NCBI GenBank assembly: GCA_049314455.1
Contig: JBMOFC010000006.1
Location: forward strand, 747-64,746
Direction of reading: 5' to 3'
Length of the DNA: 64,000 bases
Source: Chthoniobacterales bacterium
Lineage (GTDB): Bacteria; Verrucomicrobiota; Verrucomicrobiia; Chthoniobacterales; UBA6821
This document shows, one piece after another, positions 39,001 through 42,000 of this stretch. How positions within the stretch are numbered: position 1 is the first letter of the stretch; each line of letters starts with the position of its first letter. A program made the position numbers.

Positions 39001-42000
39001 CGTAGTGTGCTTCGCAGTGCACTTGCATTAGGGAAGGGGCCGAAGTAGCGAGCTCCATCCTCTTTCCGAAAGCGTACTATCTCAAAATGTGGAAAAGGAT
39101 CGCTGAGCCTTACACGGACAAGAGGAAAGCGTTTGTCATCTCGAAAACTGATGTTGTATTTTGGCCGCCATTCCTTGATTAACTTTCCTTCAAAAAGAAC
39201 CGCTTCAGCATCGCTTTTGACAAGGTGATACTCAAAATCGTGAATACTCTCAATAAGGGCACGTGTTTTAAGATCGGCACGTCTGGTGCTTGAAGGGGTG
39301 AAATAGTTGGCAAGGCGTTTGCGCAGATCACGCGCCTTCCCGACGTAGATAATCCGATCTAATCGATCTCGCATGAGGTAAACACCAGGGCGATGCGGTA
39401 CAGAGCGGAGTTTCTTGAGGAGATCTGCTTTTTTGAGTGTTGTCGTCAAAATAAATTGCTGATAAATTGCCGATAAATTGCCGATAAATTGCCGATAAAT
39501 TGCCGATAAATTGCCGATGAAATTTCAACCAAATTACACCATTACTCCGAAGATTGCTAGCCATCTCCTTTGTGTGGAGTCGGCCAAGCAAGAGGTGGTG
39601 CATTTGCCGTTGACAATAACAGTTCTGAATTCATTGCGTGAGTCAGCTCGCCTGATGACGACTCACTATTCAACGATGATTGAGGGAAATCAACTGGAGC
39701 CGGCTCAAATCGAAGTCTTACTCGAGCGAGAAGGACATTTTCCCGGACGAGAGAGAGAAGAACATGAAATCAAAGGGTATTATGCAGCGCTCCACAAAAT
39801 GGAGCAGCTGGTTCTGGAGGGGCGACCTGTCAGTGAAAAAATGATTCAAAAGCTCCATGCTCTTGTGATGGGTAATGGTAGAGTCAAGGTGAAAACAACT
39901 TCTTACCGAGATGGACAAAATGTTATTCGAGATAGCATGACTAGGAGGATTGTTTACATGCCGCCAGAAGCTAAAGATGTTCCTACCCTCATGAGTTCCA
40001 TGGTTCATTGGATTGCTCATGCTCAGTCTATTCCATGTCCGATTGTAGCTGCAATAGCCCACTATGAATTCGCAACGATTCATCCCTACTACGATGGAAA
40101 TGGTAGAACGGCTCGGTTGTTAACAACGCTTATCTTGCATCTGGGGGGATATGCTTTGAAAGGCCTCTATTCACTCGAGGAATATTATGCACGTTATCTT
40201 GACTCCTATTATAATGCCCTGAGCCGAGGTCCTTCTCATAATTATTATGAGGGTCGAGCGGAAAGTGATATTACTCCATGGATAGAGTATTTTATGGAGG
40301 GGATGGCTGATGCCTGTGAAAAAGTTCTGATTCGCATGAAGGAGGCTCAAAAAAAAGGGATCTCCGATCAAAGTTGTCTCCTTCGCAACCTCGATCCGCG
40401 GCAACGAAAAGTGCTCAAGCTTTTTCAAAAATTTGAAACGGTTACGAGTAATCAGATTGGTGTATTGTTTGATTTCAAGCCGCGGACCAGCTCACATGTT
40501 TGTGCGATATGGGTCAAAGAGGGATTTTTACAGGTAGTAGGTAGTTCTAAAAAAAACAGAAAATATAAACTTGTTCGTGACTTTGATCTCTACGGTAACT
40601 AGACCTAAAAATTACTTTTTCTGATGAGACAACATTTTAACACCAACTACCAACCAACAACTGCGAACTGCGAACTGCCATCGTGCAGTGATGGCCTGAT
40701 TTCTATCACTATACCGATCTACAACGAGTGCGAAGCAATCACACCGCTGTTTACCAAGATTCGTGAAGTGATGGATCGTTTTGGAAAATCGTACGAAGTC
40801 ATTTTTGTCAATGATGGGAGTAGTGATGGAAGCGGAGAGGTGCTTGATCAAATCGCAGCAACCTATCTGCAGGCGAAGATCATTCATTTCCGACGCAACT
40901 TTGGTCAGACCGCAGCCATGATGGCCGGTTTTGATTATGCCTCAGGGGAGGTGATTATTCCCATGGATGGTGATTATCAAAATGATCCAGAAGATATTCC
41001 TCGGATGCTGGCAAAGCTGGATGAGGGTTATGATGTCTGTTCTGGCTGGCGCCGCGATCGCCAAGACAACGCCTTGCAACGAAATATTCCCAGCATGATG
41101 GCAAACAAGTTGATTTCAGCGATCTCAGGGGTGCGCCTTCATGATTTCGGTTGCTCTCTCAAGGCCTATCGTCGTGACGTGATTGAAGGGGTTCGCCTTT
41201 ATGGTGAAATGCATCGCTTTCTTCCTATTTATACCAAGTGGCATGGAGCTCGCATCACGGAGCTGCCAGTGAATCATTTTGCACGAACCACAGGTCATTC
41301 TAAATATGGCCTCGAACGAGTGCTTAAAGTGATTTTGGATTTAATGGTTGTTAAATTTCTGGACCGGCATGCACAAAAGCCAATGTATGTCTTTGGTGCT
41401 TGTGGGCTCATCAGCCTAACGGCGAGCTTCGCCTTTGTAGCTTGGGCACTAGGGCTTCTTTTCTTTTCCCAGAAGCCACTCATCACAACACCACTGCCAC
41501 TCATGGCGGTTTTTACATTCCTCATGGGAGTCATGAGTTTTCTCATGGGTCTACTTGCTGAAATGATCACGCGTACTTTTTATGAATCACAAGGAAAGTC
41601 GATTTATTTGGTGCGTGGGACGCGTAATGTTGCCCAGAGAGCAGAGAGAAATAGAGATTAGGTTGAATAATGCATTACAAAAAAAGTCTCATTTTAGTTC
41701 TTGGAATGAAGCGAAGTGGGATGAGCGTTTTAACCAAGGGTCTTGAGACAATGGGTGTATCCTTAGGGAATCATCTCATGCCATCCCATTCATTTAATGA
41801 AACAGGATATTGGGAAGATGCGGATTTTCATGCGCTCAATCGTGAAATACTAGACTCTTTTGGGAATCGTCTGCGTCGTATTGTGCCGCTGACAGAAAAA
41901 GAAGTTTCTATCTTGCTTAAGAGTCATTACTTAGGGCAGGCGGCTAAGTTATTGCTTAAGAAGATACCTCAAGATAGGCCCTTTGCCATCAAGGTTCCTA

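Follow-up and report, generated by a model that had tools for sequence, protein, structure and literature searches.

We find that the entire gap between the divergent genes uvrC and fic in a contig of a Chthoniobacterales bacterium (JBMOFC010000006.1, assembly GCA_049314455.1) consists of an 11-bp tandem repeat whose unit is a specific DNA box conserved across phyla, not a generic slippage tract. The repeat lies in a stretch of 64,000 nucleotides (positions 747 to 64,746 of the contig, forward strand), which was analysed as a whole and is called the window below. The box, the 10-mer TTGCCGATAA, is tightly associated across phyla with genes for Fic enzymes whose C-terminal domain is a winged helix-turn-helix (wHTH), and its copy number differs between lineages. 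We think it somewhat probable that the array is an expanded cognate site of this Fic-wHTH family and acts in autoregulation, with Fic as the predicted binder, a reading based on sequence comparison and on precedents in the family. Autoregulation and DNA control of Fic-wHTH enzymes are already known; the interest here lies mainly in a box conserved across two domains of life and in boxes embedded in coding sequence.

The array and its boxes

The features on which the argument depends are as follows.

39451 to 39516, plus strand: six tandem 11-bp units, ATAAATTGCTG and then five perfect copies of ATAAATTGCCG (sequence, Tandem Repeats Finder, shuffles)
Starts at 39456, 39467, 39478, 39489 and 39500, plus strand: 10-bp boxes TTGC(C/T)GATAA (sequence)
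39511 to 39520, plus strand: sixth box, degenerate, TTGCCGATGA, overlapping the fic start codon (sequence)
39517 to 40602, plus strand: fic, class II Fic enzyme of 361 amino acids (gene prediction, domain and profile matches)
40372 to 40587, plus strand: region of fic predicted to encode the C-terminal wHTH (structure model, Foldseek, wing motif)
37896 to 39449, minus strand: uvrC, its TTG start codon 1 bp away from the array (gene prediction, domain matches)

The sequence, the repeat search and the gene starts bear out the original prediction, made from the sequence of this stretch, that six 11-bp repeats fill the whole gap, from the uvrC TTG on one side to the fic ATG on the other. Tandem Repeats Finder places the array at 39451-39524 (period 11, 6.6 copies, 96% matches, score 132), by a wide margin the top-scoring array of the 64-kb window. 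The unit occurs seven times in the window with at most one mismatch, against 1.46 expected, and six of these occurrences are the array itself; none of 100 shuffles reached seven. Relative to the fic ATG, the boxes cover positions -61 to +4.

A box conserved across phyla and tied to fic

A survey of one genome per GTDB species (596 Gb) for the exact two-unit 22-mer recovered 32 loci (species genomes) from about a dozen phyla, where our own arithmetic predicts about 0.07 chance matches. The phyla include Acidobacteriota, Chloroflexota, Thermodesulfobacteriota, Nitrospirota, Planctomycetota and Verrucomicrobiota, and further loci belong to Bacteroidia, Fibrobacterota, Bacillota, Chlamydiota and others. 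The pattern continues in the bases around the 22-mer, and the conserved core is the 10-mer every 11 bp. Variants of the box are TTGCCG, TTGCTG, TTAACGGCA and TTTAATGAC. A Fic gene of about 375 amino acids adjoins the array in 22 of the 32 loci, and five more carry short Fic remnants (27/32 together). What the array accompanies is fic itself, since the genes on its other side have no relation to one another. Three of the remaining loci have a SLFN_AlbA_2 + HATPase_c_4 + HTH_DeoR gene, and two have neither that gene nor Fic.

Several loci of this survey have individual features of their own. Box arrays stand beside short Fic remnants in L007, L017, L026, L028 and L030, in the first of which an N-terminal Fic fragment is fused straight to the repeat tail; arrays therefore outlast the gene. 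In an Anaerolineae locus (L012), arrays in the same orientation flank the Fic gene on both sides (~1310-1345 and ~2435-2480) and an AbiEii toxin gene is adjacent, an arrangement that looks cassette-like. In the Fibrobacterota and Bacteroidia loci with SLFN_AlbA_2 + HATPase_c_4 + HTH_DeoR genes, the boxes come shortly after the gene, on its 3' side (L003 ~4550-4600, L008 ~2660-2770, L009 ~670-780), with two box clusters around an AT-rich spacer of 55-60 bp in both L008 and L009; the wHTH of these neighbours matches the Fic wHTH weakly (hhalign probability 38%). Orphan arrays occur in Chlamydiae, between proS and a secreted-protein gene (L032 ~3030-3075), and in Chloroflexi (L019 ~2560-2600). 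Viral contigs yielded a single, uninformative match (L034 2000-2035, 2.5 units in a phage intergenic region), and a BLAST comparison of the array with plasmids gave none, possibly because of low-complexity masking.

Loci of the window's own Fic subfamily were fetched from metagenomes by protein patterns or similarity only, and the window's own clade was excluded from the enrichment. In these loci the box (at most one mismatch, either orientation) is 41-fold enriched at -100 to +12 of the fic start compared with the rest of the loci. Up to one mismatch, 9 of 16 loci have it upstream of fic; allowing two mismatches raises this to 13 of 16. The usual layout combines a pair of antisense-type boxes TTATCGGCA, spaced 11 bp at about -60 and -49, of which the second frequently runs into a -10-like CATAAT, with one or two sense boxes near -22, -11 or 0. 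The last sense box overlaps ATG CCG ATA AAA (Met-Pro-Ile-Lys), and in homologues starting MPIKF the equivalent of the window's sixth box is ATGCCGATAA, encoding Met-Pro-Ile. The 11-bp phasing is real, strict and family-wide: boxes of the same orientation are 11, 22 or 33 bp apart in 16 of 17 cases, and from an antisense box to a sense box the distance is 27, 38, 49 or 60 bp in 15 of 17, with a mode of 38 bp. More distant Fic genes (48-50% identity; L051 and L052) have 11-bp-phased repeats of a different unit. In a cultured organism, a Fic gene on a Paenibacillus larvae plasmid (L070) has two phased boxes over an extended -10 promoter.

The window itself has one candidate for an antisense box.

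39440 to 39449, plus strand: weak antisense-like site TTGTCGTCAA, matching the antisense-type box TTATCGGCAA at 8 of 10 positions (sequence, register)

This site precedes the sense boxes by 16, 27, 38, 49, 60 and 71 bp, the register typical of the family (5 mod 11). Its bases are at once uvrC codons 1-4 on the opposite strand, and L037 and L068 lack it, so we give it little weight.

Copy number among relatives

Relatives whose Fic proteins are 87%, 81%, 70% and 69% identical to that of the window have uvrC and fic divergent and a sense-oriented array that ends at the fic ATG, and the window locus is stably syntenic among them. The numbers of boxes are as follows.

Window: six boxes
L035 (87%): four boxes
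L036 (81%): three boxes
L037 (70%): six boxes
L038 and L067-L069 (69%): five boxes

All six boxes of L037 are the variant TTGCTG, a uniformity that points to concerted turnover of the array and to copy number shifting over evolutionary time. Three independent assemblies with fic 100% identical at the nucleotide level (L067, L068 and L069) have five boxes each, and in the 87% relative (P0002) the spacer is of equal length in contigs from two samples. This comparison uses consensus assemblies, in which rare or low-frequency variants would not show, and at that level there is no sign of rapid switching of box number. The original expectation that the unit number changes thus holds between lineages (3, 4, 5, 6 and 6 boxes) and fails for near-identical assemblies, where it is constant, and the rheostat or phase switch proposed with it finds no positive support. 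The array had also been taken as an element shared with uvrC. In L037 and L068, uvrC is ~260-290 bp distant and the array still abuts the fic ATG; the array therefore belongs to fic, and that it touches uvrC in the window is a secondary matter.

The Fic protein of the window

By its motifs and its structure model, the protein encoded next to the array is a class II Fic enzyme with a predicted C-terminal wHTH. A Chthoniobacterales metagenome-assembled genome encodes a protein 100% identical to it, and it matches the Pfam Fic family with E = 1.1e-18. The active-site motif HPYYDGNGR (class motif HPFx[D/E]GN[G/K]R) is present and is invariant in an alignment of 42 sequences. The inhibitory motif STMIEGN occupies residues 52-58, on the N-terminal side of the Fic core within one polypeptide, as in class II ([S/T]xxxE[G/N]), and S52, T53, I55, E56, G57 and N58 are invariant in the same alignment.

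The structure model has a mean predicted local distance difference test (pLDDT) score of 79, with values per 10-residue block of 81-92 across residues 281-350 and of 68 in the last block. Its C-terminal part is modelled as three helices (294-305, 311-318 and 322-334) and a beta hairpin (338-352). Foldseek returned full-length matches at probability 1.0 to 4RGL, 8CIL (CbFic2), 3EQX (SoFic) and 7XUX (CccR), and also found 3ZEC (SoFic); a sequence search with the window protein reaches 7xux (E = 1.5e-12) and 3eqx as well. The family is very large: among 8,000 candidates scored, more than 6,500 proteins belong to it at E <= 1e-20, with 65-70% identity across phyla. A wing motif, S-N-K/R-x-R-x-Y-x-L-S, is conserved both in the window's subfamily and in the sister subfamily to which we now turn.

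Boxes within the coding sequence of a sister subfamily

In most of the GTDB loci with the 22-mer, the Fic gene ends in codons supplied by the other strand of the array (TTA TCG GCA ATT TAT CGG CAA TTT ATC GGC AAT, or LSAIYRQFIGN). Nearly all of 120 proteins retrieved with a sister-subfamily profile that was built with this tail removed end in LSAIYRQ[FY]I[GD]xLSA[MI], and thousands more Fic-wHTH proteins fall in the same subfamily. Its genes have three to four boxes TTATCGGCAA in 11-bp register inside the last ~14 codons (LSAIYRQFIGNLSA). Four sister loci (L061-L064) were picked from the protein list alone, two of them (L061 and L062) from Methanoperedens-like archaea, and all four have four boxes in 11-bp register, the third degenerate (for example, L062 3573-3616). 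The box codon is used at 38 of 41 tail residues that match the consensus, a choice that, given the codon usage of the gene concerned, has a probability of 1e-6 to 1e-7.6 per gene, and the G+C content of third codon positions is 0.56-0.69 in the gene body versus 0.21-0.43 in the tail. From this codon choice and the drop in third-position G+C, we infer that the DNA itself is under selection in the sister tails.

The repeat-encoded peptide also concerns the annotation of the window.

39328 to 39603, minus strand: spurious open reading frame (ORF) of 91 amino acids, with QFIGNLSAIY twice, reading through the array (sequence)

What keeps this ORF open is that none of the minus-strand frames of the array contains a stop codon. 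Its earlier dismissal as an artefact holds for the window and not for the peptide in general, as LSAIYRQFIG is a real protein tail, the genuine C-terminus, in the sister subfamily. A query of four copies of the repeat-encoded 11-mer as a peptide brought up 491 candidates, none significant. The tandem sequence was found in the literature only as chance single 11-mers, mostly primers, and no description of the box or of the repeat-encoded tail was found in the searchable literature.

Many sister genes lie inside operons, such as hsdM-hsdS-fic-hsdR (L002), and often near defence or addiction genes. Examples of the latter are the type I restriction-modification operon of L002 (2642-7822), an AbiEi-like gene identified only by eye (L024 4595-5386), a PIN + PhdYeFM pair (L064 3698-4434) and an EcoRV-like endonuclease with a methylase (L062 671-2459).

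Comparison with known systems

To our knowledge, three Fic-wHTH members have been studied (CccR, SoFic and CbFic2), all of which bind DNA, with a defined specific site only for CccR, and no conserved family-wide DNA site has been reported for these enzymes. The box at 11-bp phasing offers a concrete candidate ligand, which may bear on the question of what an AMPylase does with a winged helix. Its conservation reaches from Verrucomicrobiota to Methanoperedens, and it comes with natural variants of one to six copies and with a natural coding-embedded case.

CccR autorepresses via two inverted 10-bp boxes with 26 bp between them, 36 bp start to start (PMC9755527). The SoFic dimer binds the first 100 bp ahead of its own start, and its DNA binding needs the dimer (bioRxiv 10.64898/2026.07.09.737422), and the activity of CbFic2 is stimulated by DNA-induced dimerisation, for which non-specific DNA was used (PMC10628234). 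CccR of Yersinia pseudotuberculosis (7XUX) resembles the window protein in its Fic domain with a C-terminal HTH (fold match over ~370-385 aligned columns), and its distance of 36 bp is close to the modal 38 bp of the window's family. The position of its operator, within about 100 bp upstream and over promoter elements, is also that of the window boxes, of the family enrichment and of the boxes in L070. Inverted pairs are likewise typical of the family (27, 38 or 49 bp), whereas the window has direct repeats and the single 8/10 antisense-like site in register. Where CccR has one inverted pair, multiples in phase are found in the family and, in the window, six direct copies that extend to the ATG; CccR also acts as a type VI secretion system effector, and nothing suggests this for the window protein. 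SoFic (Shewanella oneidensis SO_4266) and CbFic2 (Coxiella burnetii) are class II enzymes with a C-terminal wHTH and match the window protein in fold, but a specific box is defined for neither, and their identity to it is ~19-20%.

Similar arrangements of sites are found outside the Fic family. The parC site of plasmid R1 consists of 11-bp repeats bound by ParR, a ribbon-helix-helix protein, and belongs with the iteron- and centromere-type arrays. Like the window array, these are direct repeats one helical turn apart beside the gene of the presumed binder, a geometry that favours cooperative binding on one DNA face; unlike them, the window array is chromosomal and syntenic, its candidate binder is a wHTH protein, and no replication initiator or partition ATPase gene is among the window neighbours. 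Simple-sequence contingency loci of host-adapted bacteria have promoter repeats of 1-7 bp units. The window has in common with them perfect tandem repeats in a 5' regulatory region whose number varies between lineages, and differs in its 11-bp unit, in a sequence conserved across phyla and in the lack of variation between near-identical genomes. The parS site embedded in the parB/spo0J coding sequence offers a parallel to the sister subfamily, a site written into the coding region of its own binder, but it belongs to another protein family and function and is a palindrome rather than a set of phased direct repeats.

A putative Fic operator and its alternatives

In the explanation that we favour, the array would be a tandem expansion of the 10-bp box, six copies at one every 11 bp, and may have come from duplication of the proximal sense box, the one that in other members of the family lies over the start codon, as the sixth box in the window still does. 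A Fic dimer would dock on the boxes via its C-terminal winged helix, and, with the boxes covering the fic leader and start codon, binding would repress fic. As the boxes also lie against the uvrC start in the window lineage, uvrC may be affected incidentally, and drift of box number between lineages, by slippage or unequal exchange, would change operator occupancy. Both the identity of the binder and the repressive effect are predictions, drawn from the sequences and from analogy with the characterised family members. The original prediction had named the winged helix of Fic itself as a candidate binder, which fits the findings here and, by analogy, the precedents of CccR and SoFic (PMC9755527; bioRxiv 10.64898/2026.07.09.737422). 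That boxes are also found in archaea (L061 and L062) speaks for a binder carried along with the gene rather than a factor of the host. Altogether, the original interpretation is partly supported: the array is phased and regulatory in position, and the Fic winged helix is the best candidate binder.

Several observations weigh against the favoured explanation. The two subfamilies have the box in common but unlike recognition helices, with only one Arg of the helix and the wing motif conserved between them. In the window the repeats are direct, bar the one weak antisense-like site, and typical members and CccR have inverted ones. The CccR box AGATAATCAT differs from TTGCCGATAA, with only GATAA in common. 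Five of the 32 arrays (L003, L008, L009, L019 and L032) have no Fic nearby, and the boxes of the sister subfamily, at the 3' end of genes that are often in operons, are left unexplained by promoter autoregulation.

It is the coding-embedded copies, which an operator role fails to explain, that lead us to keep as a serious rival or complement the possibility that the boxes are a cognate DNA scaffold, driving Fic dimerisation or oligomerisation, switching AMPylation or deAMPylation, or tethering the enzyme to its locus. Any effect on transcription would then be secondary, and the scaffold is compatible with an operator. Taken by itself we consider it unlikely, though deserving of attention. It draws on the stimulation of CbFic2 through DNA-induced dimerisation (PMC10628234) and the need of SoFic for a dimer (bioRxiv 10.64898/2026.07.09.737422), and on sister boxes that are under DNA-level selection and sit at the 3' end within operons (hsdM-hsdS-fic-hsdR), where no promoter is expected, in an archaeon too. 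The boxes of the window-like subfamily, however, sit at an operator position, over -10-like sequences and the start codon, and the CbFic2 stimulation came from non-specific DNA. We give little credence to a contingency locus, in which frequent slipped-strand changes of unit number would tune fic (and uvrC) within populations. The five perfect units, the different counts of lineages (3, 4, 5, 6 and 6) and the turnover evident in the homogenised L037 units are what it would predict, but L067-L069 all have five boxes and both P0002 assemblies have the same intergenic length. In addition, a pure slippage tract has no need of a unit conserved across phyla, an 11-bp unit cannot fine-tune the spacing of -35 and -10 elements, and a change of number upstream of the ATG leaves the fic frame unshifted.

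Another DNA-binding factor, or DNA shape, could be involved in place of Fic if the A-rich ATAAA segments, in phase at 11-bp intervals, bend the DNA or are used by a nucleoid protein. Favourable to this are the recognition helix, which is not conserved between the box-sharing subfamilies, and the arrays without Fic nearby, three of them beside AlbA_2/HATPase_c_4/HTH_DeoR genes. CGATAAATT also presumably resembles the published H-NS high-affinity motif TCGATAAATT. We nonetheless hold such a factor to be improbable: no single host factor covers Verrucomicrobiota, Acidobacteriota, Chloroflexota, Bacillota and Methanoperedens, TTGCCG (the GC-rich half) is conserved no less strictly than the A-rich half, and the association with fic is tight (27/32 loci; 41-fold enrichment). 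Least probable, in our judgement, is that the array acts as RNA, in the leader of the fic or uvrC mRNA, or is a neutral minisatellite. The array is part of at least one 5' leader and has no Shine-Dalgarno sequence, which would suit an RNA role; yet it has no Rfam match at E <= 1, its two strands fold no better than shuffled sequences (z = +0.42 and +1.56), and the orientation of the box relative to the adjacent gene varies between loci. Neutrality is contradicted by the conservation across phyla and by the codon test. Two other candidates were rejected. A DnaA box was set aside by inspection, as TTATCGGCA differs from TTATCCACA at two positions, which we take to be contact positions. A mobile-element end or recombination site, prompted by the double arrays of L012 and by two integrase genes after Fic in L063, was likewise set aside, on account of the stable synteny of the locus in relatives.

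The putative Fic operator can also be placed in a broader proposal, which we regard as rather unlikely as a whole: that Fic-wHTH genes of Bacteria and Archaea carry the ligand of their own protein as a portable "self-box," which, beyond repressing transcription, would gate the AMPylase via DNA-templated oligomerisation. The box would be an operator upstream of the gene in one subfamily, and in the other the last 14 codons would be under joint selection for protein and DNA. If so, the locus would be a DNA-licensed toxin or defence switch, and the six-box array of the window a lineage-specific gain in sensitivity. The genes often found beside these Fic genes (type I restriction-modification, AbiE, toxin-antitoxin and DNA-repair genes) would fit such a switch.

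Flanking genes and promoter candidates

The uvrC gene encodes GIY-YIG, UVR, UvrC_RNaseH and HhH domains. Apart from its TTG, no ATG, GTG or TTG start precedes the GIY-YIG domain, and this TTG is conserved in both L035 and L036; an exact look-up of the window UvrC protein returned no record. The other neighbours in the window are a DPRP photolyase-like gene, a GT2 glycosyltransferase gene and a sulfotransferase-like gene. DNA-repair genes recur near fic, with uvrC and a DPRP photolyase-related gene both in the window (36343-39449) and in L037 (1-4587), where a gene for an S24/S26 (LexA/UmuD-like) peptidase lies downstream of fic. On the P. larvae plasmid (L070, 124-2634), a DNA polymerase IV gene lies upstream of fic.

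A consensus scan found no sigma-70-like hexamer pair inside the array, in line with the original remark that the hexamers lie 11 or 22 bp apart rather than 17. There is one weak candidate at the edge of the array.

39440 to 39468, plus strand: weak candidate fic promoter, TTGTCG, 17-bp spacer, TAAATT, 8 of 12 consensus positions (consensus scan)

The candidate straddles the array edge, with the -35 outside the array and the -10 in unit 2. Its geometry is the same in L035 and similar, with a 16-nt spacer, in L038, and it was not found in L036 or L037. This weak candidate would put the start of transcription inside the array, the remaining boxes forming the leader. No promoter candidate was found for uvrC, whose leader must cross the boxes because the gene starts 1 bp from the array; a coupling of uvrC to the putative Fic occupancy is therefore plausible from the sequence layout.

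Some minor features complete the description. At 39489-39519, the TTG in each unit opens a six-codon mini-ORF (MPINCR), and the stop TGA of the last one overlaps the fic ATG (ATGA). These mini-ORFs probably have no meaning, though they could matter if the leader were translated. A Logan assembly of SRR30676221 has an identical fic, and its contig breaks inside the repeat (L001 1-28). Elsewhere in the window, a 15-bp unit, CTGAAAAACAAGATG, is present in 2.1 tandem copies at each of two places ~900 bp apart (61561-61592 and 62455-62486).

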